A DNA stretch of 61,059 nt, counting the filler, from Stramenopiles sp. TOSAG23-6 (Eukaryota), in NCBI GenBank assembly GCA_900128565.1. It is 13 parts of 13 records of this genome, joined end to end, with 100 filler letters (N's around TTAATTAATTAA, not from the genome) between each part and the next. Parts side by side here need not be neighbours in the genome. Positions count along the whole stretch, not along the records: positions 1 to 4,634 come from LT637109.1; positions 4,735 to 9,361 come from LT637110.1; positions 9,462 to 14,083 come from LT637111.1; positions 14,184 to 18,800 come from LT637112.1; positions 18,901 to 23,513 come from LT637113.1; positions 23,614 to 28,224 come from LT637114.1; positions 28,325 to 32,932 come from LT637115.1; positions 33,033 to 37,627 come from LT637117.1; 5 more parts are not named here. One strand, 5' to 3'. The position numbers and the translations under genes are program-made. Positions 1,940 to 61,059 of the stretch are shown piece after piece (position 1 is the first letter of the stretch; each line of letters starts with the position of its first letter). The notes under the pieces were generated by a model. It saw only the letters and a list, made by a program, of their open reading frames with translations. It ran no database searches and was not told the origin of the DNA.

Positions 1940-2624
1940 GGATTTTTTTTTAAATATTTTGTACATTACATATTAGTCCTGAAGGTATTATTTGTACCGA
2001 TATGATACTTCGAACATTAGAACAGTTATCTCCAGAATTTGCAAGTGCCATCAGTTCTCAAATATTACGCTCAAAATTAGACTATATTGTACATGGGGCA
2101 GCATCACCATCCGATGTAATCACTTTGAGTAAAAAATATCCTGAATTATTGAAGCGAATAGATTCAAAAGTTTCTTCTACTGTAAACACTGAAATGATGT
2201 ATGTTTTATTTTTTTTTTTACAAAAAAATCGAATTTTTTTTTATAGTAAATTTTGTACCTAACAATTTTTTTTAGATTTCTTTGAAATATTTTTCCAAAA
2301 TACATGATGACTTCAAAAATGCCACAAAATGTCACATTGAAAAAGTTAAAACTTGGAGGTTATTTAGTATTATTTTTATTATTAACGAAACGATTGCAGA
2401 AATTAGCAAAGCATGGTTTATCTTTACTCTTTCGATGGACATTTACTGTTGTAACTATGTTGTACGCCAAACCTCTTTTGAAAGATTTTTTAGAAGGTGG
2501 TGAGGTAGATTTTAGTGTTCTAGTACAAAATTGTCAGACTTTGTTAATGAGGACGACAAAATTTGTTATTCATTTACTGAAAGATCAGTACCCCAAAGTT
2601 GCTATGATAAATTCGAGGATATAA
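915..2624 (+). CDS. Permuted papain-like NlpC/P60 (YiiX/YebB-like) protein; exons ~915-1892, 1972-2198, 2306-2624
   Basis: PGDIILVRS...YDHAAVVVG...GEPYN with downstream ICTD Cys; three ORFs join in frame after intron removal. Confidence 0.6.
1663..1782 (+). repeat. Two-copy 60-nt coding tandem repeat (SNSSGGxTQHTQLNSTQPDI)
   Basis: Direct comparison of 1663-1722 with 1723-1782. Confidence 0.9.
1893..1971 (+). other. Degenerate family intron GT...AT, phase 0 (a canonical GT-AG alternative 1891-1984 also keeps frame)
   Basis: GTACGTTTTC donor, AAATATTTTGTACATTACAT end; GGT|ATT in frame. Confidence 0.55.
2199..2305 (+). mobile_element. GT-AT introner-like intron, phase 2
   Basis: AT|GTATGTTTT...GTACCTAAC...AAAATACAT|G; the internal TTTAG at 2275 would give an in-frame TGA. 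Confidence 0.85.
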
Positions 2625-2646
2625 TTGTTATAAATAAATCATAGTT

Positions 2647-3432
2647 TTACACTAATATAAAATGCGTGTATAGCACACATATTACATAGCAAAAAAATAC
2701 AGGTACTATACAAAGCTTTCCGAAAATTTGTACAGGTTTAATAAATCTTTTACCTAATCCAAATTTAAGTGTGGCTTTCGGCCAACCTTGATACAGATGC
2801 CATGACAGAACAGCTACGACAACAATATAAAATGAGGCTGTTATTTTATCACTCAATACCTCTACCTGTAATTTATATAAGTCTCTAATATTAACAACCT
2901 TAGTTCCCCCAGTTGAAGTAGTTACATATTCCTTCCCAAATTTAAACTGATAGAGATGTATTGGGATGAAAGCCAAAAGCACTACCCCGGAAAGAAAAAG
3001 TCCAACTAATTTGAGCCACTGAAAGGATGCCTGAGGATATAATATATATTTTCGCTTGTACTGGTACGTTAGTCTCAAACCAGCGACTACGTGTATGACA
3101 CAACCCAGTAATAAATACAGCTCAATATACTTGAGGATATAGAGGGAATTGAGTACGTGGCCATATTCATTGAATGCCACAGATCCTTTTAAAATCGCCA
3201 TATTTCCTGCAGCATGAACTACAATAAAACAAAGTAAAAATACCGACGACCGCAACACGGCTTCCCGCGCATTGAAGCAAATTACGCTCTTGAACAGTAT
3301 AGTTAAGATAACTTTCAACGTTGTGAACAACACCAAAGGAAAAGAGGGGTTGCTGAAGTCTTTAACTTCTTTACAAGGTTTATCAATGATTTTCTTCTCC
3401 TCTCGATTTGTCTGACGAGTACTCATCACCAT
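2647..3432 (-). CDS. Bacterial-type succinate dehydrogenase/fumarate reductase cytochrome b (b558 family) subunit
   Basis: Hydrophobic helices with His ligands: FIVVHAAGN..AFNEYGH, IHVVAG, FIPIHLYQF, SWHLYQG. Confidence 0.7.
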   Translation of the reverse strand: MVMSTRQTNREEKKIIDKPCKEVKDFSNPSFPLVLFTTLKVILTILFKSVICFNAREAVLRSSVFLLCFIVVHAAGNMAILKGSVAFNEYGHVLNSLYILKYIELYLLLGCVIHVVAGLRLTYQYKRKYILYPQASFQWLKLVGLFLSGVVLLAFIPIHLYQFKFGKEYVTTSTGGTKVVNIRDLYKLQVEVLSDKITASFYIVVVAVLSWHLYQGWPKATLKFGLGKRFIKPVQIFGKLCIVPVFFCYVICVLYTHFILV

Positions 3433-3600
3433 GATGACTTCTACAAGAAAAATATAGTTTATTGGAGAGAAAACTTAATAGGCAATCCGCGCGAGGTCTA
3501 GACTCTTTAAATTACAAGAATGTTTGAGTAAGACTCATGAGTCATGACAGACAGAGACAGACGCGCATTCGCATTCTGACTATCTAGTTCCAAATAGCGC

Positions 3601-3613
3601 TAGGGTTAGGGTT
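3601..3613 (+). repeat. Short telomere-type TTAGGG tract (telo-box-like) between divergent genes
   Basis: TAGGGTTAGGGTT. Confidence 0.65.
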
Positions 3614-4766: not shown

Positions 4767-7453
4767 TCTTTTGGAAAACAGCAGTTCCAAAGAATTAATA
4801 TTAATATGTTGCATCGTCAACTTGATCGTGATTCACTAAGTGGCATTGGCATCGCTGGACAAGCTAGTCATGGTAGGTCTCCGGAAGAAATTGAAGCTAT
4901 GCGTCAACGTCGTGTACGTTCAGCTCTTGAAAGTGCTATTTTGTGGAACAAACAAGTCAAGCATATTGCAGCACATGCTCATGTTCTAGAAGCATGGAAG
5001 CAAGTACGTTTTCATCATGAATTTCAGATTTATTTTATTTTTTTGTACGAAATTTTGTACCTAACGACTTTTTTTTAAATATTTTTTCACAATACATGTA
5101 ATTAGTGTTGCTTTTCTCCAAGCTTTGACGGCACTACGTGAAGTTGTACGAGAAGGCGATCAAGAAGTTCTTCTTGCGCGACTCGTCATGTCGACACTCA
5201 CAAAACTTCAAGAGCATCCAAACTCTCCAATGACTTTATCTGAGCCTCTGGCTGACACTGTACTCATGCTCATGTGTAAGTTACGTGAGCAGTGTAAAAG
5301 TATGACATTATCAGTTTTACAATGTAGTCAACTTTTACGAAATATTCTACAATGTTTAGTGCGTGATGGTTCTGGAGGGCGCGGTGGTCTTTCTGGTACT
5401 ACACAACAAATGAGATGTTCACTTTATACATCATTATTGTTATATCTGCAATACACTCGGGATGCCCCCAACTACGATACAGATATAGAAATAGAGGGAG
5501 CTGAATTTGATGAAGCTACTTCCGGCGGTTTCACTTTAGATGCAAGTATGAATGTTCTACTTCAACAACATCATCATCGACATGCGTCTTCATCTACTGC
5601 ATTAGAACAACAAGCTATAAAAAGACGCCGTCAGCTTCTTCACTCAAACGTTCAAGTTTTAAGTGAGGTCGGTGAAGCTTTGGCCCAAACTCTTGTTAAA
5701 GATTCCTCTGAAGGCCCCCCCTGTTTGGCGTGCATTAGCATTATCTACATTAGGTGCCGCATTGGCGTATGACCGCGATGCGCGATGGCTACGCTTCATT
5801 CGAGAAAGTGGACATTTACAACGTCTTTTGGTTGCATTACGTGAAATGCCGATTACAATTGTTTTTCCATCAAAAGTTGCGACTATAGCAGAACAAACAC
5901 AGGCAGCTGGCACAATGGCTATATACGAAAGTGCTATGTCGTTATTTGTACGTCTGGCACAATCTCGTCTTGGGGCAGCAGCATTAGTGGATTATGGAGC
6001 AGTTGATGCTATTATTACATGTGCCGCATTACAACATCTCCCTCTCGAATTTGCAGATACAATGGATATCACTGTGTCACGTGATATGAATAGTGATGAG
6101 GGAGTATTGACAGTTACACCAATGCAATCTTTTCATCGTGTGTTGGTACCAGCACTACAATTAGTTTTGAGTCTATCCGTGTCAGTGCCGAAGGACCACC
6201 ATCCTATGAAGCTTCACCTTCTCACTCTTATCAAACAACGCCGAAAGTTATTTGCAGTAGTGCTTCGACAAGCTGCTTCCTCATGGGATAGACATCAAGC
6301 TGCAGCGGCAGCGTCAATGCGTTCTCAAATTTCAACACATGGTGCATCGATAGATAATAACAGAAATACAATAAATCATAATGGAAACATAGCAAGTCAG
6401 GTTGCAGCAGCTACCGCAATAGAAGCTGGTGAAATGGAACAATTAAATCAACTTCAACTTGTAACGGCCATTCTTTCCCAAGCAACAATCGACCCGCAAC
6501 TATTTAATCAGAATCTCGAACATGATGCGGAAAAACTGCGAAAACTTGTCCTTCGTGTAATGTGTAGATTTGTATCTGTTCCTGGTATATTTAAAGGAGC
6601 TGCAGTAAATGAAATTCATCCCATATATACAAATAATGGAAGTATGAATTTAGATCACGAATCTCCGCTTGGTATTCCTTCTGTAGGAGGTCTTGACAGT
6701 CCTCTTCCACCTAAAGCACAATTACGATATTTATCTCAAATTACAGTTCTTCGAAATTGTCTTTCTTTTTGCCGTAGACAATGTATTAATTTTGATCGCA
6801 ATGAAACATTGACTAGAGAACAATTATTTTCGCCACCTGACCGTTTGTTCAGCCTGTCTGCTGCGGTGAAGAATGACTTAAATGCTGATCGAATTGGGAG
6901 TAGTAGTTTTTTTAGTGGGATGGATTCCGTAAATGATGCAGGGCGTGGGAATGTTGCAAGTGAAATTTCAAAAATGGTTCGCCCTGATACGAAAGCGCAT
7001 CTTGATGTCACGTCTCTGGATGTAGTAGTTGATTGTATTAATAGGTGCGCTCTCAGAATTTATGATATCGAGAGGTATCAGAATGAAACACAGCCTGCTG
7101 ATTCTGATGATGTTCCTGATGTGCCTCGCCAGAATAATATTGGCATTTCTTACATGTCAACTGCGACTGGTGCAGGTCGTTTTGATGCACCCTTATCTGA
7201 TGGATCACATGCAAACACCGAACCACAAATGCTTTATTTTATTCTAGAAAGTGCTTTAGTTTTGGTTCACACGCACTTGATGTTGTTCGCCCAGGATGAC
7301 GATTTTGCAAGATATCGAGCTGGGTTACCTCATTTTGTCGAAGGGGTGACCTCTAATGTGACCGTTCTTGCGGCAGCTACCCCTCATTCATTTTTGAGAA
7401 GTATTTGTCATCGTCTTCATGAACTACCCCAAAATATTAAACATGCGACATGA
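4767..7453 (+). CDS. NUP205: Nucleoporin Nup205/Nup192-like, C-terminal part; intron 5004-5097; apparent 1-nt frameshift at C7 run 5715-5721
   Basis: AWKQ|VISVAF, TQQMRCSLYTSLLLYLQ, IYESAMSLFVRLAQSRLGAAALV, ILESALVLVHTHL resemble Nup205. Confidence 0.75.
5004..5097 (+). mobile_element. GT-AT introner-like intron, phase 0
   Basis: CAA|GTACGTTTT...CACAATACAT|GTA; downstream AGs at 5105 and 5122 are out of phase. Confidence 0.85.
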
Positions 7454-11923: not shown

Positions 11924-12090
11924 ATCGTTGGTAGTGTATTTGTTTATATACCTTACTTATAAAAATATATGTTTTTTAATATGAATTCTTATGTGTTTTG
12001 TTTATTTACATGGTTACTGTTTTTATTTCTTTATCTCGATTTTATATATTTATAATACTCAATAAATNAACATTGCAATATCTATTTTGT

Positions 12091-12170
12091 TTTTAACAAT
12101 TGACTAAAATATCATCTATAAAATAAATTGTTTGAACAATTGACTAAAATATCATCTATAAAATAAATTT
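12091..12170. repeat. 40-nt tandem duplication overlapping the HslU stop codon
   Basis: AACAATTGACTAAAATATCATCTATAAAATAAATT occurs twice. Confidence 0.85.
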
Positions 12171-13968
12171 AGTTAGGTCCATCTTTGTCAACATGGAGCC
12201 AAGTTTTTCATCCACATCTTTGGNAGTAATTGTTACAGTTGAATCAGGCTTCATGTCCGAAGCGTCAAAAGATATATCATCCATCATTCTCTCCATGACN
12301 GTATGAAGACGCCGAGCACCAATATTTTCGACTTGAGTATTCATCTCTGCTGCAACATGCGCAATTCTTTGNATTGCTTCATCCTCAAAGACAAGTTTTA
12401 CACCATCTGTTTCAAGTAAAGCAATTTGTTGACGAATCATATTCACTTCTGGTTCAGTAAGTATACGTAAAAGATCTTTTTCTTTCAGACCATTCAATTC
12501 NACACGAATNGGAAGACGTCCCTGTAACTCTGGTAAAAGATCAGCGGGNTTACAATGATGGAAAGCACCAGATGCGATAAATAATATGTAATCTGTATTT
12601 ATGTTACCATGTTTGGTATTGATAGTGGAACCTTCAATTAAAGGCAACAAATCACGTTGCACGCCTTCATCAGANGCATCACCTGAATTACGACTACCCT
12701 CCGCATTGCAAATTTTATCTATCTCATCGATGAAAACGATACCATTTTGTTCTACTAGTTTTATTGCATCTGCAGTTAAATCACTATCGTCCAATATTTT
12801 TTCGATTTCATAATTTTCCAAAGATTTCCGAGCATCTGGAACCAACATTTTTTTTGTCTTCATTGTAGGTGTCGGTGGACTTCCAGCATTTCCACGACCT
12901 TGNAGCTTACTAATTAAATCAGCAATAGGAACTGCGCTAATACCATTTGCATCGCCACCACCAGCCATCAACGTCTGGTTGCCTGGAGGGGTAACAGGAA
13001 TCTCAACTTCGACTGCAATTTTATCGAGTTCTTTACTATGATACATTTTAAGCCACTTTTGCATATCATCTGGNTCTTCTGAACCAACTANCTGTTGAAT
13101 AATTTGGTTTGCTACTTTATCCTGAACCATAGGTAAAAGAGCTTCCCGTTTTAGCTTTCGCATTAAAGTAATGTATTGTAAAAAAAAAGTCAAATTTCAA
13201 ATTCATTAGTCATAACAAAAATTACAAAAAAATTGTCTAGAAAAAAATCTAAAATTACAAAACAANTTGTCTAAAAAAAAATCTAAACTTCTTAATAAAA
13301 ACATACATGCCCTGTTCCACAAGGTCTCGAATGATCATATCCACGTCACGACCGTGAAAACCAACTTCAGTGAATTTCGTTGCTTCGACTTTTAGAAAAG
13401 GTGCATTAGCAATCTTACTCAATCTCCGTGCTACTTCAGTTTTTCCACAACCAGTTGGGCCAATCATGAGAATATTACGTGGCATTACTTCCTTTTGGAG
13501 TTCNTCGGGAAGTTGCTGACGCCGCCAGCGATTTCTCATGGCAACTGCCACAGCTCGCTTTGCGTCAGACTGTCCTACAATATGCCTCTCGAGTTCAGTG
13601 ACAATTTCGCTAGGTTTCATATTTTTCAGTTCTACAACTTTTGACATGACTGCTTTAACAGTTATTTCACTGTTATCTTCAACTAGACCAGACACTAAAG
13701 GATCCTTTTTTTTACTGCCCGAAGTGTCCCCATTCGTCGTGTCTGTAGAACTGGGGCCAGTTGATAAAGATTGTATACCTTGACGTGAAAACACAGCTGA
13801 GTGATTTCTTAAAATGGGTGTACCCGCCAAGATGCCATCAGACGCAGGAGAGCGAGCAGATGTATGTAATGAACGAATACAAATAGGAATAGTTCCTGTA
13901 GACCATTGCGTAGACCGCTTACCAAAGCTAGATAGAATACATCGAGCTGTTGCACCAGCAGAACTCAT
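12156..13968 (-). CDS. hslU: ATP-dependent protease ATPase HslU/ClpY (organellar); exons 13968-13307, 13170-12156
   Basis: [57 protein letters not shown]; transit-peptide-like N-terminus. Confidence 0.95.
13171..13306 (-). other. Diverged GT-AT intron, phase 2
   Basis: GGC AT|GTATGTTTT...TACAATACAT|T ACT gives RDLVEQGITLMR; branch-like TGACTAAT. Confidence 0.85.
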
Positions 13969-14183: not shown

Positions 14184-14300
14184 ATGTATTTTGGAAAAAT
14201 ATTTCAAAAAAAAACTAAAAAAAATTGTTAGGTACAAAATTTTTATAAAAAACCAAAAAAAAAAAAATCGATTTTTTGTAAAAAATAAAATAAAACATAC
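14184..14300 (-). mobile_element. GT-AT introner-like intron at contig end
   Basis: Full consensus; interrupts ThrRS just after LQRV, at the Tyr codon of the LQR(I/V)YG motif. Confidence 0.8.
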
Positions 14301-16444: not shown

Positions 16445-18114
16445 TTATAAGTTCAGCCGCAGATTACAATGATTAAGATTTTGACATAACTTTTGAAGAT
16501 TATGGAATAATAACCTTTTTGCTAATTTGTCATAATGGCATGAATACTTTTCATGTGTGACTATATTTAGATCAACTAACAATAAAACACGCATTTCTCC
16601 ATCATCATCAAGATTTTGAAGTAATTGCTTCACTGCTTCGCCGTTAAGCATCCTCGTATCCTGTTTATTCACAGACAGTAAATATAGTCCGTGTAAACGT
16701 GAACCAATATTGTTGTCATCAATGTATAATCGAACAATGTTTCCGCCCGTGCACCTAGATGTTATTCCCAACAAGTGTATTCCATCTGGAAGAGGTTCTA
16801 ACGAAAACTTCATACCACTAATTCGCCCTTGAGGAAGCATCACACGTATGAAGCCACTATCCTTTATGTTTGCTTTAAGCTCCATTAATGCAAGATCAGT
16901 ATCTACATGAAGTTCAATTTTAATACTATCATCAAAATTGAATTTTTTACTTTGTTTCATTGAGTTGGAATATCGCTCATGTTTACTAACTTTTTTGGAA
17001 CATTCACTTGGTAGGATTTTGGTTGCAATTCCAGTTTTCGTTAGTCTTCTCCCCAACGATTGTGTAATCCTGTTACAATTATTTTCTTTTACTTCAAAAA
17101 TATCGTTTCTATTTTTTTTTTTAGGAATAATTGGGTTATAATCCGAAGCTAGTTGGGTAAGGGCGTCAGTTAGAATACTTATGCATTTTGTATTTGTTTG
17201 AAAAATCGGGGATTCCACATGTGACACATGTGTATTTTTTGGCTTTAGTGTTGGAGTTGCTACTGAAGCTTGGACAATTTTTTTATCAGTAGTTTCTGAA
17301 GAATGAAAACTCGATGTTTTATCTTTTGTTTCTTCGTCGATACTTTTGCACATCTTTTGTAAATCAACTTCAACCTTTGGGCTGTTTGAATCGGATGGCG
17401 ATTTTTCTACTAATGGAGGTAATGGTGGAGGAGGTGGTGGGATATCATCTAACCAGGAATCGTCCTCATCACTTTGTGAAATCTTAATTTCTTCTGGAGC
17501 ATGGCCGTCCATAATTGCAAAAAGACAACTCATTCCGCGCAATTCAAAAAACGAATCATTTTTTTTACTTTCCGCGTTTTTCATATGCCTATCAGTGTCT
17601 ATTTGACTTGATTTTATCACTTGTTTACTCATGTGGACGGGTTTATTTTCCGCACTTATTTTAATATTTGTGAGTGTTTTACGAGCTGAAACTACTGACT
17701 TTGCTATACTTTCTATCTGAGACCGTTTTTTTTTTTTTTTCTGTTGATGTATCTTCATATTAAAATTCTTTACAAATTGCATTCCTGAGTGCGAAGAACA
17801 TCTTTGAGTTACACAACCCAAAAGACTAACAGCAGTACTCACATCAAGCTTAATATCAGCATCTTGCATGAGATCAAAAATTTCATCCGTACGCTCTAGC
17901 AAAGCGTTGCTACAACACATTCTCAAAATGGCAACAACTTTTATAGGACAACGAAGGATCAGACGAATTTTTGCATTTGGAGGTGCAATGGATATTTCAT
18001 TATTATCATTAAGATTCAGAACCCGATCGGAATTAGAAATCTGTATTTTGTAAAAATATTTCAAACATTTTCAGAAATTTGTTAGGTACAACATTTTCAT
18101 TTTTTTTTTACACG

Positions 18115-18151
<37 letters not shown>

Positions 18152-18654
18152 GAGTTAGGTACAACATTTTCTAGTAAAAACAAATTACTTCTTTCAAATC
18201 GTGTAAAAGTTTCCAAACACCTGCGATGTTAGGTTTTGCGTTACCCGCTCCACAATAACGTGTAATCGATGCATTGATGCGTTTTACATCATTATTTACA
18301 TTTTCTTGTACACGTGACAAACCTGCCATGGCTTTTTGTTCCGCCTTTTCCGCTGGTGTTAACTTTTTTTTTTTTGCTGTTTTTTTATTTTTTTTAGTGT
18401 TTTTAGAATTTTTACTTTTTCCATTGTTCTGATTATTTGATATTGTATTTGACTCAACTTCCTCAATATCCATTTTATCAGGCTCTACACCAGCAAACGC
18501 AAGCATTCGAGCGGTAGCAGCCATTTTAGAGAGATGTTTTGTACGACCATACCCTAGAGCATACATTGAATCATATTCACAAGTTGTCACGAAATCTCCA
18601 TCGCGCCCCGAAGGTTTATCAAAATCTCGATCTGTTGTTCTAGATGTTTTGTAC
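16445..18654 (-). CDS. Hypothetical protein, 5'-truncated; exons 18654-18189, 18040-16445; PPR-like helical segment, Pro-rich tract
   Basis: Two ORFs join in phase 0 across intron 18041-18188. Confidence 0.55.
18041..18188 (-). mobile_element. Family intron with AG acceptor (GT-AG), two TACCTAAC modules
   Basis: GAA|GTAATTTG...AAATATTTTTACAAAATACAG|ATT, phase 0. Confidence 0.75.
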
Positions 18655-18800
18655 ATGTATTGTGGAAAAATATTTCAAATTGTTTTTCGTTAGGTACAAA
18701 ATTTTTATAAAAAAAAAAATCGATTTTTGTGTAAAAAAGAAAATGAAATATTTCAAAAAAAAATTCTAAAAAATTTGTTAGGTACAAAATTTCGTACGAA
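18655..18800 (-). mobile_element. 3' part of a GT-AT family intron with duplicated branch module
   Basis: ...CCACAATACAT|G; GTACCTAAC twice. Confidence 0.75.
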
Positions 18801-19026
18801 NNNNNNNNNNNNNNNNNNNNNNNNNNNNNNNNNNNNNNNNNNNNTTAATTAATTAANNNNNNNNNNNNNNNNNNNNNNNNNNNNNNNNNNNNNNNNNNNN
18901 AAAAGTAATAAATCTCAAATTGAAATGAATGATGAAAACGTACTAACAAAAAAAAATCGTTTTTGTTTAGGTACAAAATTTTGTATGAAAAAAATTATAA
19001 ATTTGAAATGAATGATGAAAACGTAC

Positions 19027-20832: not shown

Positions 20833-23431
20833 GTGGAAAAAATGAATTGTATTTCATATCCAGCAAAGTTGATGTCCATGTCTAAATTATTCGTAGTTGT
20901 GGTAGTGTCTCTACTAATATTGAATCCGGTATTTGCTTTGTTCGAAGATGAAGTTGGTGTGGTTGACTGGGTACGACAAGGTATTGGTGCCGTACGTTCA
21001 ACTATATTTCGGGGAAAGTACACGTATGTTTCTACTGAATCTGGTGTCGTTGCCAAATTGGTAACTTCGAGTGGTGAAATTCAATGGAGGCAAGTACTTC
21101 CACGAAATGAACGTGTTGAAGTATTGCAGTATAGTAAATATGGTGTACTTACTGTGACAAAACAGAAGATGGTTCGTCTTTTTGACCGAAAGACTGGAAA
21201 TCTCAAATGGGACAGCTCTTTTACGAATTCTGCCGAGCAGCAGAATGATCCGAAGGATATATTGAGTCGTTTACACTCGTCCTCTTACATGGAAGGTGAG
21301 TGGATAAGCGACTTTGATGGTGACAATATCGAAGACATTTTAATACTCTGCGATTCTCAACTTGTAGCTTTTTCAGGTGCAACGGGTGATCTTATTTGGG
21401 AATACAAAGCCAAAAATGGTATTATACTCCAAACTATGAATGTCGAATACTCTGTGATTCATGTAGCTGGTATGAGAGCACCAGACGATAAGCTTACGTC
21501 TAACCTTTTTATAGCAAACATTAACTTTGCTAATGGAGAGGTCGTCGAGAGTCACGAACAATTTGAAGCTAGGGTTCCTGGCTGCCATCTTGCATGGATA
21601 CACTCGAAAGAATATGGTGCTGCTCTTGCCTTCTTGGGATATGAAGCTAAAGCAATATCTATTTATATGTTTGCTTCTGGTAGTTTTAGTCATGAAACAT
21701 TTCGTGTCATTGGCCTCTCAGATGACTTTTCCTCTACAAATAGTCAATTGTCATTAAAACCATTACATGGAACTCGACGTAGACAAAATACGATGCTTCA
21801 ATTGAGTAATGACACGTCCGGTGATGTGTCGATTTTGAGTGCTAAATTTAGTAAAGATGGAAGTAAAATTGTGTATGAAATAATTGATTTTTCTGTCAAT
21901 AGAGAAGAAGAAAATTCAACTGTGTACACCGCAGTATCTCCTTCTTCAAAAATTGAATCGTATGTTGCGTCGATGCGTACAACAAAAAAAGGTTTAGTTA
22001 CACAAATCATTGATTCAAAAGGGAAACAAACGAAAAGAAAAATCGACATTTTGCCAAAGTTAAACTCAGAAACACATGGCACTCAAATCAAAACATTTTT
22101 TTTCAGAAATATTTCATATGATACATTTGAAGTTCTCGTCGTCCTTGAGGATTTGTCGACTGTCTTATTTAGCATTGAATACAATACGCCTAAAATTTCG
22201 TGGATCAGAGAAGAAGCAATTGCTACTGGGTATAAGCTTCTTGATGGTGATATCGCTAATACTACGTTAAATGATAATGTTGTTTGGGCAATACCTGACA
22301 CAACTCACGAGCATAATGCCTCCGGTCATCGTTCTCAAGATCCTTACCATATGACGTTTGCGATGAGATTGTTTGATCAAATGGAAAGAATTATTCATTA
22401 TGTTGAGAACACTTTAGCTCATTTAAAGACCAATATTAAATTGGTATCTATGATGCGATCGTGGGACCCAATGACGTTTTCTTCTGAATTTGACATTCTT
22501 TCAAAAAATACTTTTCATCACAGGAACAACTCCATATCTGGATATGAATCTAGTTTATTTGGGTTCGATCGATTACTTCTATTACTGACCACCCCTGGGA
22601 AAATATTTGCTATACATGTACGTTTTTATTATGAATTTTTTTTCGTACGAAATTTTGTACCTAAGATTTTTTTTAAATTTTTATTATGAATTTTTTATCT
22701 ATAATTTATTTTTCATACGAAATTTTGTAACTAAATTTTTTTTTTTCAATTTCGAATTTTTTTTTTCACAATGCATGGTGTTGATGGATCGATTGTTTGG
22801 TCAACTTACATTCCTGGGGCGACTAAAGTATTTGTGGACAATCAAGCAGAATTGGTGTTTGTTGTAAGTAAACAATCTAATTCGTACGAAATATCTGTAC
22901 TTAGTATGATTTCTGGTGCCAAAGAAAGTCATCATACGTTACCTAAAGATATCAAACAAATTTTGCCTTATAAGAACGTGAAGAATATTTCTAAAAGTGT
23001 GGAGCATCTTCCATTTATGTTTCTGATTGTTGATAAAGATAATAATGTAGCTTTATTTACGCATGATGCTTCAAAGGTAGATATGATACGAGATGTCATC
23101 AAGGATAACTATTCAGTGACATTTTATCAGCAACTCAATATTGAAAATGGGACTTTAAAAGGGTTTAACATGTATGTCTTATTTTTTTTTTCAATTTTGA
23201 AGTTTTTTTCATACGAAATTTTGTACCTAACGCCTTTTTTTTTTTTGAAATATTTTTTCACAATATATTCGCCCTGTTTCCAAAAGTGACAAAAAGAAGA
23301 GTAATAAAAGTAAAACCAATATCTCCTTTGATTATAAAGGACAAGAAATATGGTCGTTACATACAAAATATGATTGGCCTGATGAATCAAAAAATATATC
23401 GAAACTTGAATTAAATTCAAACGAGATTCAT
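20833..23431 (+). CDS. EMC1: ER membrane protein complex subunit 1, partial; exons to 22617, 22777-23171, 23269-23431
   Basis: ALFEDEVGVVDW, SGEIQWRQVL, WIREEA, FGFDRLLLLLTTPGKIFAIH|GVDGSIVW. Confidence 0.85.
22618..22776 (+). mobile_element. GT-AT intron, phase 0, internally duplicated
   Basis: CAT|GTACGTTTT...CACAATGCAT|GGT. Confidence 0.85.
23172..23268 (+). mobile_element. GT-AT intron, phase 2
   Basis: AT|GTATGTC...CACAATATAT|T; opens a stop-free exon to the next donor at 23432. Confidence 0.85.
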
Positions 23432-23680
23432 GTATGTTTTATTGTTTTTCAAATTCGATTTTTTTCGTACGAAATTTTGTACCTAACAAATTTAAGTTTT
23501 TTTTTTTTGAAATNNNNNNNNNNNNNNNNNNNNNNNNNNNNNNNNNNNNNNNNNNNNTTAATTAATTAANNNNNNNNNNNNNNNNNNNNNNNNNNNNNNN
23601 NNNNNNNNNNNNNGAAATTTGTTAGGTACAAAATTTCGTACGAAAAAAAAATAAATTTGAAATTCATACTGAAAACGTAC

Positions 23681-28121: not shown

Positions 28122-28324
28122 ATGTATTTTGGAAAAATATTTCAAAAAAAAAAAAAAAAAATCGTTAGGAACAAAATTTCGTACGAAAAAAAAAATCGAT
28201 TTTTTTTTTAAAAAAAAAAAAAAANNNNNNNNNNNNNNNNNNNNNNNNNNNNNNNNNNNNNNNNNNNNTTAATTAATTAANNNNNNNNNNNNNNNNNNNN
28301 NNNNNNNNNNNNNNNNNNNNNNNN

Positions 28325-32880: not shown

Positions 32881-33032
32881 GTATGTTTTATTTTTTTTTC
32901 AAATTCGATTTTTTTTCGTACGAAATTTTGTANNNNNNNNNNNNNNNNNNNNNNNNNNNNNNNNNNNNNNNNNNNNTTAATTAATTAANNNNNNNNNNNN
33001 NNNNNNNNNNNNNNNNNNNNNNNNNNNNNNNN

Positions 33033-35500: not shown

Positions 35501-35509
35501 GTACGTTTT

Positions 35510-35542
<33 letters not shown>

Positions 35543-35725
35543 TTTTTTTTTTTAAAAAAATTTTTTACCCTAAAAAAAAAAAAAAAAACAATTGAAGTTC
35601 CAAAATGTTTTTTTTTTTCCCTACATGATGATTTCAATTTTTTTTTTTTTTTTTTTTTTTTTTCGTACACAATTTCATACCTAACAAAACCAAATCAATG
35701 TTTGAAATATTCTCCTATACTATAT

Positions 35726-42135: not shown

Positions 42136-42473
42136 GTCTCAAAAAAAATGAAAAACTTTTATTTTTTATACAATCTTATACCCAATATAGCTCTAGGGCG
42201 AACCCCTTGGAATAAGTACTATAACAATATACGTCATAGTTTTCACTCTGTATCAAGTTATGCTATTGCATTTGCTACAGTTGCCGGTTTTTTTCAAAGT
42301 TTCGTTGTGAGTTTTTTCNNNNNNNNNNNNNNNNNNNNNNNNNNNNNNNNNNNNNNNNNNNNTTAATTAATTAANNNNNNNNNNNNNNNNNNNNNNNNNN
42401 NNNNNNNNNNNNNNNNNNAATTTTGTACCTAACAAATTTTAGTTTTTTTTTGAAATATTTTTCCAAAATACAT

Positions 42474-42990
42474 ACCTGATGATGTATTGAGAATCCTTGG
42501 CTTATCTACCAGTAGTAAAGATAAAAATGTATCAAATGATGGTACCCCTAACCCTAACCCTAATAGTACAGAATTTGAAGAATTGGATTATATTCTTATT
42601 AGTGATTGTTTATATATTACAATTAGAGACTCATTACAAGAGGATTTCGTGTCAACGCTTGTAAATCTTTGTACTTTAAATACGACTGTCATTATGACAA
42701 CGAAAATTCGTCTCCAGCAAGAATATGATGTGTTGGATTCACTCGCACAATGTACGTTTTCATCATACATTTAAAAGAATATTTTCATAAGAAATTTTGT
42801 ACCTAACGATTTTTTTTCAATATTTTTTTACAAAACATACTTTGATATTGAAACTGTTTCTCAAAGTGAATTAGACTTTCATGATTTAGATGACTTTGAT
42901 TCAGATGGTAGTGATGATGATGAAAGTAATTTATTTGCAATGTTTCAAGAAATTCCAGAAATTCACTTTGTTATTATGAAACGAAAATAA
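42474..42990 (+). CDS. METTL21/Methyltransf_16-like methyltransferase, C-terminal exons 42474-42751, 42839-42990
   Basis: DYILISDCLY motif; GT-AT intron 42752-42838 gives AQ|YFDIE and a stop at 42990. Confidence 0.7.
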
Positions 42991-43869: not shown

Positions 43870-45114
43870 CTAGTTCTTTTTCGTGTCTTTTTTTGCATCC
43901 ACTCCAGGTTTTTCTTCACCCTCATCTTTTTTACCATCTTTTGTATCCTTCTTTTTTAATTTATTCTTCTTGGTCTCATCATTTCCATCATCATATGGAT
44001 TCACTCCATACTTCAGCTTGTTATTGACGGAATCATGTAACGCCGTAATACTACGAAGTAAAGCAGCAATATAGATGACGAGGTGAGTGTCATTTGTTTT
44101 AACAAATAAAGCACGAAGAATCTTTTCTCTGCATAGATTAGGAATAAGATTTAGGATATTTTGAATATTGTAGACAATTTGGTTATTCACTTGCAACTCT
44201 TTCTTTTCAACACGCTCTAAATACGTTGCCATTTCTGCCAATCTTGCCTTCAGACCTCGAAGTGCTGTAATTTTGTGTTTGATTTGTCCAGCTAGAGTAG
44301 ACACTGAAACATCATTCACATCACGAAGCAAATGTTCAACGCCAACTTCTTCCGTTTCATGGGCTTCAATACGGGATGGTAAATGTTTAAATATACGTCG
44401 AGATGCTTTCCCATTTACTTGAACTTCTTCCTCTAATTTGTAGGCTTTTACTGGAATCCCTTCATCTCCTCGTTCAGCACGAACATCAATTATTGTGAAG
44501 ATAGGATTTTTGCAATGTCGTTTTCCAAATATATCAGCAATCTCTAGATCCGCAGGTCTAATATGTGGTCCTGTACTGTAGAAACCAACGACGAGCTCCT
44601 TTGCTAGAATATTTGATAGAAACAAAAGAAATGAAGATTATTAGTAAAAAATATATACATAGTAATATAAGAATATCACAGTATGTGATATATATATGTT
44701 TCAATATATATATATGGTTATGGTTCAAAATAAAGGGTTGCATGGAGAGAAAAAAATGATTACTCCAGCAGGTTTGGTCAAAAAAAAGAGTGTGAACGTA
44801 CCATTAATGCGACGAAACATGCCAGCCATTTCATCCAAATAGTTGTGGTCTAAAAACCAAATATTACCATCTCTTTTATCTTCTTCAAACGGTACAGCGA
44901 AACTGTTCGTTACATCAATCTCATTGCCGCGACGCTCACCCAAGAGGACACCAACGACACGTCTATTACGGGTGTCCTTCGCTACGCGATTATAATGATC
45001 TACAGTGCTCAACAATACCAACGGATGAATTGTTACAGTCTTATCTTTCTTAACCACATCAAAGGCAGGCGGTGTTGCGTCTGTGTTATTCGCAATATCA
45101 GGAGACGCTGTCAT
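43870..45114 (-). CDS. PSMD7: 26S proteasome subunit Rpn8; exons 45114-44802, 44603-43870
   Basis: [59 protein letters not shown]. Confidence 0.96.
44604..44801 (-). other. Ordinary GT-AG spliceosomal intron, not of the repeat family
   Basis: G|GTACGT...TACTAAT...TTCTAG|CA, phase 1. Confidence 0.9.
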
Positions 45115-46955: not shown

Positions 46956-47161
46956 ATGTATTTTGGAAAAATATTTCAAAAAAAAATCGTTAGGTACAAA
47001 ATTTCGTACNNNNNNNNNNNNNNNNNNNNNNNNNNNNNNNNNNNNNNNNNNNNTTAATTAATTAANNNNNNNNNNNNNNNNNNNNNNNNNNNNNNNNNNN
47101 NNNNNNNNNACGAAATTTTGTACCTAACGATTTTTTTTTGAAATATTTTTCCAAAATACAT

Positions 47162-50277: not shown

Positions 50278-51610
50278 ATGAATCGTTCATGGCACAAACG
50301 AAACATAGGTATTCGTAACCGGCCTCAACGTCGTTTCCAACTTCTATTGTCGCGTGCAAAAATAATAGGTTTTCATCAGGAGCACAAAAATGATGGCTCA
50401 CCTGTAACTACTAGATACGTTATTGATGTTGTGATAGTAAAGTCGTCTAAACATAACGTGACACGCATTACAACGTTAATTAAGACTGAGAATGATATTT
50501 CTGAACTTGAAACATCTTTTGTACGTTTCCATAGTCTCACACCTTCACCAGTATTCAATAGATCTTGCTCTATTTTAGGGCCAAATGTGGACAAAATGAC
50601 AGAGCGTGTTCAACATCTCAATAGGTGGTTTAAATATATCATTACAAACTCAAAATTGAATTCATCGGCTGTGTTCAAGAATTTCTTTTTGACGGGTAAC
50701 ACTTCGTATTTGCAACGAAGCATTCCCTCCAATTCTACCTTTCCTTCGCTATCTCCGTTTTTTACAGGTTTTTTCCACGCCTTGAGCTTACCACTACATT
50801 TATCATCCAAGACACTGAAAATTAGATTGCCATACGTTTCAGCGAAAAATATTGATCTTGTTCTAGAGGTATCAAAAGGTTCATCCGTCAAATCATATCG
50901 AGATAATGAAGTTGTGCATAATATAATAAGCTGGGCTAACCTTCAGTGGACAAAATGCGAAGAATTTGACATTTCAATAAACCACCCAAATACTACTGAA
51001 AATACACTACCAAAAAAAGAAATCGTGGACATTCTCCTCCAAGGTTTAAGTAATAGAATTTGTAGTGTTATTCGTCCTACACTCTGGTTCAAATGCTCAG
51101 GAGCTTATCAACTTGCGGTAGATGCTGGAGCTGATGAAAATGTAATCATAACTTCTTCATCGACTTCAATGATGTATGTTTTATCTTTTTTTTTTAACAA
51201 AAAATCGATTTGTTTTTTAGTACGAAATTTTGTACCTAACAAATTTTAATTTTTTTTTTGAAATATTTTTCCGAAATACATATACCAAAGGTATTGGCAA
51301 CAGTCAAAAATTACGGATAAAGTAATGCATCAAATTAAGCTCGATTTAAAAAGATCTGGCCTTGTTACTCCAAATAGTATGAAATCTCTAGAAAGAATAC
51401 TTGTCGCTTTTGTATCACGAAATAAAGGAATTTCATATGTCCAAGGTATGAATTTTCTCGCGGCAACCTGCCTCCTTGCTGGTCTGCCAGAAGAACAAAC
51501 ATTTTGGGTCCTTTGCCAAATTATAGAGCAACGACAGTTACAGTATTATGCAAAGGAGTTAGAAGGGTTATATATTGATATATTTGTAGTTTCAATTCTC
51601 CTTCGAACGT
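50278..51610 (+). CDS. PX-like plus TBC (Rab-GAP) protein, partial; exons 50278-51173, 51282-51610
   Basis: QIKLDLKRS, GISYVQGMNFLAA, EEQTFW; GT-AT intron 51174-51281 keeps frame. Confidence 0.85.
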
Positions 51611-51799
51611 GTACGTTTTATTTTTTTCAATTTTTTTATCTAATTTTTTTTTCGTACGAAATTTCGTACCTAACAAATTTTACAAAAAAAAATATTTTTN
51701 NNNNNNNNNNNNNNNNNNNNNNNNNNNNNNNNNNNNNNNNNNNTTAATTAATTAANNNNNNNNNNNNNNNNNNNNNNNNNNNNNNNNNNNNNNNNNNNN

Positions 51800-56379: not shown

Positions 56380-56546
56380 NNNNNNNNNNNNNNNNNNNNN
56401 NNNNNNNNNNNNNNNNNNNNNNNTTAATTAATTAANNNNNNNNNNNNNNNNNNNNNNNNNNNNNNNNNNNNNNNNNNNNCTTTGATTTTTTTTGTTAGGT
56501 ACGAAATTTCGTACGAAAACAAAATTAAATTAAAAAAAAAACCTAC

Positions 56547-57695
56547 GAATTAACGACTTGATTTCCAACAGAATTTCGACTCCAGACAACAATTCTAACC
56601 TCACCAGTTTGTCTTATTTTACCAGGTAAAGCTTGAATATTTCCATTATATGTAGTAATGGACGCACTATGAACTCGAATGACATCACCAATACTGAAAA
56701 TGTTTGGAAACAAAGTCGCGTTCTTTGCAAATACATTAATTTGGAGAGTTTTCGACGATTCTGAAACCGATTGAACTGAATTTAACGATTTATCAATAAT
56801 TTCAATATTCATACATAAATCTTTACCTCGTGTCGCTTTTGGGAAAGTCGCACTTACAACTATACCATAGAAATTTGCCATTCCTTTTTTAATTGATTGA
56901 TAGGAGTATCTGCAGTGTGAAAAAATGTCGAATTTGAAAACTTGTTAAATTTTTTTTTTTTTTTGCTTTTTTGTTTAGGTACAAAATTTGGTATGAAAAA
57001 AAATATAAATTTGAAATTCATAATGAAAACGTACACGTGTATACTGTTTCTTGTTTTTTTCCATTACGAGACGATGTCCGAGTACTTGTCCGACGGCGAT
57101 TCTGTGAATTTTTAGCATCAATATTTCCGGATATTGAAGCACTGATTGATGTATTTGCACAGTAAAGAGGTGGCAAATCCGTCCATGCACAGCCATCGTA
57201 AATAATTTGACTACTTTTATCTCCTTTAGCAGCTTTGCGTGGATGTTGAACTTGTACTACACAAGGATTTTCATGAGATGTCTTATCATGCAATTCTATG
57301 CGGCAGCCGAGACGTTGATGACTACTAGCCATTTTCAGTTTTTCCAAATCAGAAATATCAGAAATATTTGGATCCTTGGGAGGACACTTACACAACACTT
57401 TAACTCCCCTAGATAGAAAAATACGAACACGGTCATTTGGTTCTATATCTTTTGCACGATGAGCCCAACTATCCATGAAAATAACCTCAATTGAAGATGG
57501 TCGAGCTCGTTCGATTCCAGGTCCAGTGTCTAGAAGCTGAACCTTAAACGTACAACCATGTGGTTGACCAACCAAACTAGATTTTGGACAAGTCAATTTC
57601 CAACGACGTCGTATCGTACCTTGTACATAACATTGTTCAATATGAGTACCAGATCGTATATCTTGAACATCTTTCCGTTGGCAATATTTATGCAT
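56547..57695 (-). CDS. POT1: POT1/TEBP-alpha-like OB-fold telomere protein, partial; exons 57695-57035, ~56909-56547
   Basis: VYT|YTPINQLKK..NFYGIV..PKATRGKDLCMNIEIID..FPNIFSIGDVIRVH..YNG resembles POT1 OB1. Confidence 0.75.
56910..57034 (-). mobile_element. Family intron; acceptor AG at 56910 or AT at 56908
   Basis: T|GTACGTTTTC...TACCTAAAC...CACACTGCAG-AT. Confidence 0.75.
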
Positions 57696-58086: not shown

Positions 58087-59733
58087 ATGATGCACGAGGA
58101 AAAATTAGATAGCTCTGGCACTGAAGAGTCGTTTGACGAACTTAAAGTTTCGAATAGTCCAGTGGCCTTCCAGCAAGAGTTAAGATTCCCACCAGAAGTT
58201 CCTAAATTAATGGGATCTTTCGATAAACTAAGAACGTGTGCAAATGATGATATGCAGACATGGGATAAACGTTATTTTCGAACAAATCGAGACAAAAGGA
58301 CTTTAGATTTTTACGCTCATGAACGAAATAAAGAAGATAAACTTGGAATGATTCCGTTAGACGACGTTCAAAGTATCTCTAGGATTGATAAAAAACATTT
58401 TGTTCTAAACTTAAGCATAACAATTGGTTCAGAAACCGAAGAAACAAGTCATCGGTGGTTGAGTAATCTCCAAGAATATTTTGAAAGAAGTGCAAAGTAT
58501 AACACACAACCAAAAATAAGAGCGACAGGATTAATATCAAGAAAATCATCGTATGCTGAATCTCCACGCCATACTCCTACTGACAATGAACCAAAGACAC
58601 CATTACCTAAAGGTCCAAGACGAAGAAGAAGTAAAAAGTTTTTGCCCAGAATGTTCCAAAAATCTACAAAAGGAACGGCAAAAGCAATGCGACGTCTTTC
58701 AGGGAAAATTATCGAAAAGTCAAACAAAATTGCGGCGAAAGCGGACCGATTGATCCAAAGTCATCCAAAATTGGAGAAAATGCGCAATGCTGTTAATGAC
58801 GCCGAAAATTCTGAAACTATGGAGAAATGGCGCTCTAAAACTGTTCGTGCATTTGCTGATCCCATTGATCACATCGGTGGAATTTCTTATGAAGAATTTC
58901 GAAGTTGGTATTTGAATACACAAGTTGATGTAGCAGATTTAGAAAATGTGACAGATGATAGAAGTTATGTTAAACGAGTTTTTGATAAATTTGACATTGA
59001 TGATTCAGGAACTTTGTGTAAACAAGAAGTTCGTTATCTTGCTAAATCTCTTGGATTAAAATTAACTTCAGGTTTTGGGCTCATTACATATAGGTTAGAT
59101 GACTGTTTCAAAGAGATGGACAAAGATAGTTCTGGAGAGATAGGCTTTGATGAGTTTGTTGAATGGTGGCAAAAGGAAAATCCTGATGAAGATATAAACT
59201 GGGATTTGGAAACAAGAATGAGATTTATGTTTGATACAGTAGATGTGGATAACTCAAATTCCTTAGATAAAATGGAAGTGAGGGCACTTTTGAAGAAGTT
59301 GGGTCGAAATCTATCGACGGCGTGGAAAGGTAAACATGCTTTGGATACTGCATATAATGAAATGGCAGCTTCCCGAAACGATAACGATATTTCTGAAAAT
59401 GTATCATATACATCAAAAGAAGAAAAGGAAACAAGCGAAGAAAATGAAATAGAAGACGGTGGAAGTGAGAATAAAGTAGATATACCATCCGTCACAACAC
59501 CTCCTCCTGCAAGTCCTAACGGTTCCAAAAGCTCTGAAGGTGTTCAAAGCTCTGAAGGTGTTCAAAGCTCTGAAGGTGTTCAAAACTCTGAAGGTGTTAA
59601 AAGTGTTAAAAGCTCTGAAAGTTTGGATAGTTTTTCGGTGGAAGAGCCGACCACTCCAAAAGCCCCAGAAATTCCAAAACAAATTGATAATACAACAAAA
59701 GATGAAAAATCTACTGTAGCGGGTGTAAATTAG
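58087..59733 (+). CDS. PH-like plus EF-hand protein with SSEGVQ repeats
   Basis: WDKRYF..LDFY; DIDDSGTL, DKDSSGEIGFDEF, DVDNSNSLDKME. Confidence 0.8.
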   Translation: MMHEEKLDSSGTEESFDELKVSNSPVAFQQELRFPPEVPKLMGSFDKLRTCANDDMQTWDKRYFRTNRDKRTLDFYAHERNKEDKLGMIPLDDVQSISRIDKKHFVLNLSITIGSETEETSHRWLSNLQEYFERSAKYNTQPKIRATGLISRKSSYAESPRHTPTDNEPKTPLPKGPRRRRSKKFLPRMFQKSTKGTAKAMRRLSGKIIEKSNKIAAKADRLIQSHPKLEKMRNAVNDAENSETMEKWRSKTVRAFADPIDHIGGISYEEFRSWYLNTQVDVADLENVTDDRSYVKRVFDKFDIDDSGTLCKQEVRYLAKSLGLKLTSGFGLITYRLDDCFKEMDKDSSGEIGFDEFVEWWQKENPDEDINWDLETRMRFMFDTVDVDNSNSLDKMEVRALLKKLGRNLSTAWKGKHALDTAYNEMAASRNDNDISENVSYTSKEEKETSEENEIEDGGSENKVDIPSVTTPPPASPNGSKSSEGVQSSEGVQSSEGVQNSEGVKSVKSSESLDSFSVEEPTTPKAPEIPKQIDNTTKDEKSTVAGVN

Positions 59734-59859
59734 GAAAACATTTTGTAGTATCCGAATCCGTTTTATACTATTTGCATTTAGTAGTAGTAGACATTATAAT
59801 TACAATTTCTAAATTATAAAAATAAGGATATTTTATTTTCTTGTACAATTATTATTAAG

Positions 59860-61059
59860 CTAATTTCCTTTCCCATTGAAATGAGTATTAATCCATTCTG
59901 GTTCACCTACTGTCTCCCACACCATGGACATCCCAGTTTCCGCATGTGGAAAAATATGACAATGTGCAAGAGTTGGACCTGGAAAATCACTAGCCATGAA
60001 ACGTATTGTCACATGTATTGAAAAAGAAATGTTTTACTTTAAAAATTTGTTAGGTATTTTTTTTAAGAAAAAAAAAAAAAAAAAAAAATCAAAAAAAAAT
60101 CAAAAAAAAAATCATGGAAGAAAACCTACACTACCAGACGTTGGAACACTGATTGTGTCCCGCCAGTCACCAACAATATAATCAAGACCTGCAGCTTCTT
60201 CACCACCCTGATGATCTATAGCAATAATTTGGAAATGGTGTACATGTAAATGAAAAGGATGATTTGTTGTAAGTTTTGTAGGTTTTGATAATTTCGATAA
60301 TTTCGTTTTTCTGTCATTTACAAAAGTCATATTTGACACAATTTTCCATTCTTCTACTGTATTTATTCTCACGGAACGAGATATTTCGTGTAATCCACCA
60401 TATTCCTTACCATTTATGCCATACCATTTATATTCATTCCCTGCACGTTTTACAGGCGAAGTTCCTTGACTCCATTCAAATATAAACTGTGGATTAATCT
60501 CATTCACAGATTCATCATCATTATTATTATTATTATTACTTTCACTAGTTAAATCGTACAACAAAGGCCCACCGCTTTCTTTTGTTCGTAACACAGTGGG
60601 AACTCTAAACTCATAATTATTTTTTTTTTGGTATTGTTTTTGTACTTGTTGATTTTTATTCCAAATAAAAACTGAATTCTTACTTGAATTTTCTTCATCA
60701 TGTCTCACTCGAAGAAGTAAAATGTAACCGTCAAAGACATCCGTGTCATGACCTAAATATTGATTCACAGATGTAGAAGGTTGGAAGGAACGTATCCAGA
60801 AATTTCCCGGTTTGTCACATTTCACTAATAAATCTGCACGACTTCCTGGGACAAGAAGAAATGTTTTCTTCCTGTCTAATTTTCTACTTTTTTTGAATAA
60901 AACTCCATCTCGTGCTATAACATACACTTCACATCCAATAGTATTATCATTATTATTATTTGAGGTTTCTTCATCAATGCCAATGTTTAAATAGTAATTA
61001 ATACCTGAACGAAGAATACGAAATCGATGCCATTCTCTTGGAAGCATTTCCATATTCGG
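59860..61059 (-). CDS. Multicopper oxidase C-terminal part; exons ..-60130, 60012-59860
   Basis: HPFHLHVHHF, WRDTISVP..|VTIRF..GPTLAHCHIFPHAETGM. Confidence 0.9.
60013..60129 (-). mobile_element. GT-AT intron, phase 0
   Basis: AGT|GTAGGTTTT...TACCTAAC...TCAATACAT|GTG; needed to reach the HCH copper motif. Confidence 0.88.

Follow-up and report, generated by a model that had tools for sequence, protein, structure and literature searches.

Candidate introner-like introns with GT..AT termini in nuclear genes of a marine stramenopile

Few signals in eukaryotic gene expression are as constant as the terminal AG of introns, and introner elements, which reportedly were the subject of work by Huff et al. 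in 2016, are a source of introns on a large scale. Introners are known from Micromonas, Aureococcus, dinoflagellates, fungi and other groups (PMC12130899; bioRxiv 10.1101/2022.06.06.494994), and in the accessible parts of these accounts their similar copies form introns in unrelated genes, break assemblies, favour genes and lie in sense orientation, as do the elements described here, while in some families a target-site duplication supplies one of the splice sites. The families in those parts of the surveys have 5' GT, GC, GA or AT and 3' AG or AC, and a family whose splice sites were unfamiliar was kept only when RNA supported it (PMC12130899). Here we describe a repeated family of elements from Stramenopiles sp. 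TOSAG23-6 (assembly GCA_900128565.1), found in a window (the whole stretch of DNA analysed) of 61,059 bases that comprises 13 contigs of ~4.6 kb each, arranged in order of length, with N/TTAATTAATTAA spacers between them. This family differs from those surveyed in its AT end and in having no clear target-site duplication or inverted repeat.

Introners with non-canonical ends have also been described in Amoebophrya (PMC7789003), where they are repeated and short direct repeats overlap the boundaries and make the cut ambiguous, as is the case here. In the accessible part of that account they have no consistent terminal dinucleotides and carry inverted-repeat hairpins of 8-20 nt, whereas the present family is uniformly GT..AT and gave no stable fold. 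GT-AT introns as such are on record, with one conserved U2-type example (DGCR2) and 7 of U12-type in human and mouse (PMC1557818), and of the thousand or so non-canonical U12-type introns in Physarum 17% are GT-AT (bioRxiv 10.1101/2020.10.12.336362). These animal and Physarum introns share their terminal dinucleotides with our elements and indicate that a spliceosome is able to join exons after AT, but as far as the accessible text goes they are neither a repeated family nor the commonest type and are mostly U12-type, whereas the present family is repeated and not U12-type. In Fritillaria and other tunicates (PMC13326754) lineage-wide non-GT/AG introns have been tied to mobile-element insertion and to changed recognition factors; according to the portion available, both ends and most introns are affected there, whereas here the change concerns the last base only and GT-AG introns coexist. 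In the partly accessible literature, with supplementary introner tables outside the search, we found no published description of an AT-ending introner or of intron termini in genomes of marine stramenopiles (MAST).

A profile hidden Markov model built from 25 copies gave 45 matches in the window, a few composite introns being matched twice, and did not catch the diverged copies 1893-1971 and 13306-13171 (minus strand). The total is ~42-45 elements, spread over 10-11 of the 13 contigs, which agrees with the preliminary description of this DNA, where about 45 related elements had been noted; the consensus given there also agrees with the profile alignment. The copies are 87-185 nt long (typically ~90-140 nt) and very AT-rich, in a window of ~35% GC, and their pairwise identity has a median of 74% and a range of 50-92%. 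Three blocks are conserved, namely the donor, the stretch TTTCGTACGAAATTTTGTACCTAAC and the final ~25 nt, with a tail reading ..TTTTYCAMAATACAT, and the interior is variable; each copy carries a T-rich tract, and two subfamilies can be told apart, GTATGTTTTATTTTT..CCAAAATACAT and GTACGTTTTCATCATGAATTTC..CACAATACAT. The branch-like motif TTTTGTACCTAAC occurs 49 times with at most two mismatches, against 2.9 occurrences expected from shuffled sequence. The hosts are at least eight unrelated genes (Nup205-like, HslU, EMC1, BEACH, adenylosuccinate lyase or ADSL, multicopper oxidase, POT1-like and ELMO), and all complete copies run in the same sense as the host frame, as do the partial copies whose flank can be read. 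Because most contig ends fall within an element, the repeat evidently breaks the assembly and its genomic copy number must be large. In having many copies alike in unrelated genes, all in sense orientation and each occupying the full extent of an intron, the family behaves like introners.

Reading frame and homology make it appear well supported that the segment which must be removed from these genes is exactly GT..AT. For 27 introns the sequence can be read on either side, and in 24 of these cutting exactly at GT..AT gave the longest joined open frame when set against offsets of +1 and +2 (binomial P ~3e-9), although the open-frame counts are coarse and sometimes continue through neighbouring T-rich introns. 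The three misses all have very short exons, two of them in ADSL, where homology settles the matter, and the third a tie at 34323. Homology is gap-free at six junctions (a slash marks the cut). Four of them are in ADSL, which when spliced aligns without gaps to the proteins P0002 (a relative 82% identical), P0004, P0007 and P0019, the junctions lying inside GSSAM/AYKRNP, EAFLAT/DVLLR, MEN/VISG and PQV/IHK. Another is in HslU, where the upstream exon reaches about residue 106 of PDB chain 7mhb_A and the downstream exon resumes at 108, and the last is in the multicopper oxidase, whose exons abut on the Pfam profile Cu-oxidase_2 (24-99 in the upstream and 101-133 in the downstream exon). All three intron phases are represented, and the offset control and these junctions together bear out the earlier claim that excision of GT..AT restores the frame in all three.

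The termini are highly uniform at the 5' side, where all 36 visible ends begin with GTA (GTATGT in 17, GTACGT in 15, GTATAT in 2 and GTAGGT in 2), donor position 5 is G in 34/36 and position 6 is T in 36/36, and TTT follows GTATGT and GTACGT. The 35 visible 3' ends comprise 32 AT, two AG and one TT, with T as the last intron base in 33/35, and to this tally can be added the AT ends of 13306-13171 and 14300-14184. Upstream exons (36 copies) have T at -1 in 33, A at -2 in 23 and C at -3 in 17, and end with AT in 22, so GT..AT is often indistinguishable from TG..CA or AT..AC at the level of the mRNA. The cut is placed after the final position because in 18188-18041 (minus strand) a G replaces the T at the homologous last position and this copy is in frame as GT-AG. 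The preliminary description, in which elements start with GT and end with AT, therefore holds for every visible start and for 32 of the 35 ends and gives way at 29162-29256, which ends TT, and at 18188-18041, which has a canonical in-frame CAG; the copy at 35501 is ambiguous, the homologous AT (35725) being out of frame and an in-frame AT lying at 35718. A cut at a fixed distance after the T-run was tried as a substitute rule and rejected; it fits the TT end of 29162 and fails at 57034 and 35501. The elements, with one conventional intron of the window for comparison, are the following (plus or minus strand; parts are copies cut by a contig end or gap, and "profile" notes a match to the profile).

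1893..1971, plus: diverged intron, GTACGT..TTACAT, phase 0; AT in frame, TAG at 1976 out of phase
2199..2305, plus: element, GTATGT..ATACAT, phase 2; frame and profile
5004..5097, plus: element in the Nup205-like gene, GTACGT..ATACAT, phase 0; sole complete copy with A at exon -1
13171..13306, minus: diverged element in HslU, GTATGT..ATACAT; exons abut on 7mhb_A
14184..14300, minus: complete element at contig end, ends ATACAT
18041..18188, minus: family member with canonical termini, GTAATT..ATACAG, in frame
18655..18800, minus: 3' part of a composite at contig end, ends ATACAT
18901..19026, minus: 5' part in the ELMO-domain gene, contig end; profile
22618..22776, plus: composite element in EMC1, GTACGT..ATGCAT, phase 0
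23172..23268, plus: element in EMC1, GTATGT..ATATAT, phase 2
23432..23513, plus: 5' part, contig end; profile
23614..23680, minus: 5' part in the BEACH gene, contig end; profile
25364..25461, minus: element in BEACH/WD40, GTATGT..ATACAT, phase 1; donor read through by P0212
26553..26656, minus: element in BEACH, GTATGT..AAACAT, phase 2; P0212 takes AG 26529 instead
28122..28224, minus: 3' part, contig end, ends ATACAT
28462-28556 and 28557-28661, plus: two head-to-tail elements with no exon between, jointly phase 2
29162..29256, plus: element ending TT (..ATACTT), phase 1; X6 record 15 unspliced into it
32129..32247, plus: ADSL intron 1, GTACGT..ATATAT, splits GSSAM/AYKRNP; spanned by X3 record 9
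32417..32601, plus: ADSL intron 2, GTATGT..GAATAT; CAG 32596 out of phase
32629..32730, plus: ADSL intron 3, GTACGT..ATACAT
32763..32862, plus: ADSL intron 4, GTATAT..ATACAT
32881..32932, plus: ADSL intron 5, 5' part, contig end
33101..33169, plus: 3' part, contig start, ends ATACAG
33266..33374, plus: element, phase 0, ends ATACAT
33867..33976, plus: element, phase 0, ends ATACAT
34131..34231, plus: element, phase 1, ends AAACAT
34323..34459, plus: element, phase 2, ends ATACAT; offset control tied
34639..34755, plus: element, phase 1, ends ATACAT
34917..35039, plus: 5' part before an N gap; profile
35169..35305, plus: 3' part after an N gap, ends ATACAT
35501..35725, plus: long diverged copy with ambiguous 3' end; AT 35725 out of frame, 35718 (AT) and 35724 (TA) in frame
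35894..35994, plus: element, phase 1, ends ATACAT
36429..36535, plus: element, phase 0, ends ATACAT
36930..37022, plus: element, phase 1, ends ATACAT
37133..37240, plus: element, phase 0, ends AAACAT
42419..42473, plus: 3' part, contig start, ends ATACAT
42752..42838, plus: element, phase 1, ends AAACAT
44604..44801, minus: conventional GT-AG intron outside the family; JAB profile continuity
46956..47009, minus: 3' part, contig end, ends ATACAT
47110..47161, plus: 3' part, contig start, ends ATACAT
51174..51281, plus: element, phase 2, ends ATACAT
51611..51699, plus: 5' part, contig end; profile
56480..56546, minus: 5' part (GTAGGT) after the POT1-like exon, contig end; profile
56908..57034, minus: element ending ..CTGCAGAT; CAG 56910 out of frame with a 226-codon open reading frame (ORF), AT 2 bases on in frame
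60013..60129, minus: element in the multicopper oxidase, GTAGGT..ATACAT, phase 0; Cu-oxidase_2 profile continuity

The motifs support a resemblance of the donor and of the CTAAC motif to major (U2-type) signals. The family has the /GTRNGT donor, a CTRAY motif and a pyrimidine tract, and lacks the 3' AG; a branch-like ACCTRA is present in 31/33 copies, and TACCTAAC, considered as a motif only, is separated from the 3' end by 32-126 nt (median 41). Branch sites of minor (U12-type) introns lie ~10-26 nt from the 3' end. The family has no /RTATCCTT donor (RTATCC occurs in 0/36, position 5 being G or A and position 6 T) and carries TACCTAAC at its median distance of 41 nt instead of TCCTTRAC. A conventional GT-AG intron outside the family, 44801-44604 (minus strand; GTACGTTC..TACTAAT..TCTAG), interrupts an Rpn8-like JAB/MPN gene and is backed by the continuity of the JAB profile across it (4-81 in exon 1, 85-110 in exon 2). 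Its donor is identical to the GTACGT of the family. This organism thus does use AG acceptors, AT being peculiar to the element family, so that the earlier view of an organism routinely splicing YAT with a U2-like donor is sustained in the donor and the CTAAC motif and narrowed to one family's signature beside coexisting GT-AG introns.

No stable fold joining the intron ends was found in 10 folded copies (z-scores from -2.75 to +1.57, at best a GUAU/AUAC helix of 4 bp), and the extended end complementarity of the hairpin-type introns of Amoebophrya and euglenids was absent from these copies. In the copy alignment, inspected by eye, position +4 and the 3' end did not vary in a compensatory way, and nowhere in the window did an Rfam family reach its gathering score or a small nuclear RNA appear. 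Group II and III introns, with 5' GUGYG and 3' AY, look like the element ends GUAYG..AU; self-splicing introns of these groups, with their domain V/VI structure, were rejected as candidates for elements of ~100 nt in nuclear genes with no Rfam match.

Sequence comparison supports the view that nearby AGs could not replace the AT end in at least 13/25 introns, in which none of the AGs at -75..+30 relative to the 3' end is both in frame and stop-free. AGs are not scarce in the tails, being found between the branch motif and the 3' end in 13/31, and in many tails a T-run is followed by an AG 10-16 nt past the branch motif. ADSL intron 2 has such a T-run and a CAG (32596) 5 nt before its AT end, which is out of phase and would destroy the conserved LATDVLLR. 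In 57034-56908 a CAG (56910) lies 2 nt before the in-frame AT, on frame evidence alone, from the 226-codon upstream ORF. The AGs named individually in the preliminary description behave as stated there, with 2275 in phase but meeting a stop and 5105, 5122 and 32596 out of phase. Among public models, the coding-sequence model P0003 (ADSL) reads through elements, and P0212 (BEACH) uses the AG at 26529, drops 8 codons and then reads through the next donor. Both run through elements into stop codons and are marks of canonical-only prediction, not transcript support.

The flanks point to (C)AT/G as the preferred insertion site, with G at exon +1 in 19/35. Upstream exon and intron end with the same 2 nt in 18/27 copies and with the same single nucleotide in 26/27, the intron-side CAT being nearly fixed and the exon-side copy variable. 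Simple target-site duplications of 2, 3 or 4 bases (AT, CAT, CATG) were rejected on this account, the intron side being near-invariant where the exon side varies, and the only inverted match between element ends is GTA..TAC. The intron's final T may be supplied by, or duplicated from, the target rather than the element, and the data are compatible with an origin in which an element TGTA..TACA would have entered in front of a T, or in which a single base would have been duplicated.

Some elements lie directly beside or inside others (28462-28661, 22618-22776, 18655-18800 and 18901-19026), with a zero-length exon at 28556/28557 between two abutting elements. Abutting and nested copies fit repeated insertion at a preferred site, and suggest that the junction left by the element end (CAT/G) is itself such a target. 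The ADSL relative P0002 is an uninterrupted ORF of 490 aa on a 4.3-kb contig that may derive from DNA or from RNA; were that contig genomic, all five ADSL elements would be lineage-specific gains.

We consider it likely, from these sequence features, that the elements are an introner family of major-type introns and that a major spliceosome able to use AT as the acceptor splices them. One mobile intron-generating family would insert copies into nuclear genes, and the pre-mRNA would be cut at the GT of the major-spliceosome donor (GTATGT/GTACGT). The branch would then form at CTAAC within TACCTAAC, and the second step, presumed to be spliceosomal with the cut after T, would join the exons after the final AT and not after AG, passing over AGs upstream of or adjacent to that end. 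The last T of the intron may be borrowed from the insertion target, as in introners taking one splice site from their target-site duplication. With somewhat less assurance, we favour the broader proposition that splicing after AU by the major spliceosome is routine here, probably at thousands of sites and even with a strong YAG 2-5 nt upstream, AU having spread with an introner whose last base would derive from the target.

Several observations weigh against this reading. Neither a clear target-site duplication nor a long inverted repeat was found at the element ends, so it is copy number and similarity that argue for a transposon, and the register of the cut is ambiguous by one base in all complete copies but one (5004-5097). 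A simple AT rule is broken by 29162, which ends TT, by 35501, whose only in-frame ends precede the homologous one by 7 nt (AT) or 1 nt (TA), and by 18188-18041, which uses AG. In 12/25 introns there is an in-frame, stop-free AG within the range given above, and the earlier statement that nearby AGs, where checked, are out of phase or hit stops holds for the other 13. The weakest part is the RNA. We compared the contig 28325-32932 with contigs of three RNA runs (X6, X7 and X12, from three studies) and one DNA run (X3). The RNA contigs were 48-420 nt long, the listing of joints was swamped by repeat-induced ones, and uncovered parts were not counted as evidence. No RNA contig in X6, X7 or X12 bridges a junction among the joints listed, only exon pieces being present, and one (X6 record 15, 28778-29197) runs unspliced 36 nt into the TT-ending intron at 29162. 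In the RNA runs element words are thousands-fold deeper than single-copy exon words, and the DNA run gives a similar picture (summed contig depths being a poor measure of word depth); this is not what efficient splicing would predict. Poly-A RNA seems to contain many copies that are retained or unspliced, and the material is real RNA and not just contaminating DNA, because cover is gene-dependent, the intronless gene 29840-30826 being well covered and its neighbours not. Junctions between exon and element that belong to other loci occur in RNA contigs as well, appearing as loose ends at 28555 and 32732. Finally, no same-species spliced protein or contig was found in three protein-database searches and one metagenome scan. 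The search with ADSL exon 1 returned an unspliced 100% match (P0001), the mis-modelled P0003 and the 82% relative P0002, with no spliced product. ADSL exon 2, searched against short proteins, gave no match above 85%, and the 14 examined of 91 matches were exon fragments from other eukaryotes. The first 110 residues of the BEACH exon, searched against longer proteins, matched the public model P0212 alone, and among metagenome contigs ADSL exon 1 found 28 loci, the best 65% identical, with no contig of the same species or of the 82% relative.

Other explanations have to be set beside the AT acceptor. Moving the cut one base left, to T/GTA..ACA/T, removes the same length between TG..CA termini and gives the same mRNA wherever exon -1 and the last intron base are both T (33/36 and 33/35), and the mobile unit could equally be TGTA..TACA, TG..CA ends being typical of many elements moved by transposases. 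We regard this register as distinctly unlikely and prefer GT..AT, because G1, T2 and A3 are invariant in 36/36 whereas the preceding T is found in 33/36, because the /GTAYGT donor is that of the conventional intron in the window, and because the AG-ending family member 18188-18041 is in frame as GT-AG. A shift by two bases, to AT/GTA..TAC/AT, would make the elements AT-AC introns of the minor spliceosome, again with the same mRNA in the 22/36 copies whose upstream exon ends with AT. The U12 machinery tolerates GT-AT ends in the accessible parts of two studies (PMC1557818; bioRxiv 10.1101/2020.10.12.336362). This register is excluded at ADSL junctions 2 and 4 (flanks CT and GT), where the conserved T and V of LAT/D and (K/Q/N)V/I would become N and M (LAN/D and Q/MI), and a U12 reading in general is extremely improbable with RTATCC in 0/36 donors and a branch-like motif whose median distance to the 3' end is 41 nt. 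Canonical GT-AG splicing at whichever usable AG lies closest, at the price of retaining part of the element or giving up a few codons, is what public models assume; it can draw on the 12 introns with a suitable AG, on the use of 26529 by P0212 and on the T-run and AG past the branch motif in many tails. It is very unlikely as an account of the family, as 13/25 introns offer no AG of this kind, only the AT cut leaves the alignments of ADSL, HslU and the multicopper oxidase free of gaps, and P0003 and P0212, reading through elements into stops, are the output expected of a canonical-only pipeline.

The RNA results, with an unspliced contig, element words very deep in poly-A RNA and no spliced product in the databases searched, could also suggest that nothing is spliced at all, the genes being disrupted, the elements skipped in translation or their removal not spliceosomal. 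We attach very little probability to this: essential ADSL would carry five insertions with its exons still in frame and conserved, the stretches of ~100 nt are full of stops, every copy is in sense orientation, and donor and branch motifs are conserved against a variable interior. Precise removal and short repeats at the boundaries would also fit excision from DNA in the manner of the internal eliminated sequences of ciliates, but the element-bearing form of 32129-32247 occurs in an independent environmental DNA contig, a strict sense orientation and spliceosomal motifs would be unexpected, and stop-codon use is standard, all of which makes excision from DNA highly implausible. As for an artefact, by chimeric amplification or by a systematic G-to-T miscall at the last base, the assembly is fragmented, with many single Ns in the third contig of the window and a frame change at a C7 run. 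The ADSL-bearing contig is nonetheless present in seawater DNA and RNA runs from several studies, the DNA runs X3-X5 of another study contain 56-80% of its words, and T is shared by 32/35 ends. Moreover, the independent seawater DNA contig X3 record 9 (30228-32444) spans 32129-32247 with no letter difference at the ends, so the source assembly did not miscall the final T of this copy, and an artefact is almost certainly not the explanation.

The genes of the window are eukaryotic and nuclear, including Nup192/205, EMC1, BEACH with WD40, ELMO, an LSM protein, a JAB/MPN gene resembling the proteasome lid, POT1, a multicopper oxidase, a mitochondrial-type HslU and ADSL, whose closest protein matches are stramenopiles. 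We read the source as the nuclear genome of a MAST-3-like marine stramenopile, with standard stop-codon usage in the window. The coding sequence of the first gene has a near-perfect 60-nt tandem duplication at 1680-1800 (..NSSGGDTQHTQLNSTQPDI.. twice), and the Nup205-like frame shifts at a C7 run (~5716-5722) that is probably a homopolymer error of the assembly. The contig 9462-14083, unlike the others, has many single N bases and is apparently of lower quality or consensus-masked. A POT1-type telomere-binding OB-fold exon lies at 56546-56905 (minus strand), and, separate from it, an LSM-domain protein with CCHC zinc knuckles at 20014-20544 (plus strand).

Standard gene predictors fail on these genes, both public models compared (P0003 and P0212) being mis-spliced or reading through elements, so for this uncultured lineage proteome sets and comparative work have probably been corrupted wherever there is an element. 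A commonest intron type ending in AT beside GT-AG introns would be a natural experiment on site choice in the second step of splicing, and would extend the wholesale creation of introns by introners to an element that imposes a non-canonical acceptor. If the AU acceptor is indeed routine, the 3' splice site would be chosen here by position or context and not by AG, and the second-step factors would probably have co-adapted.

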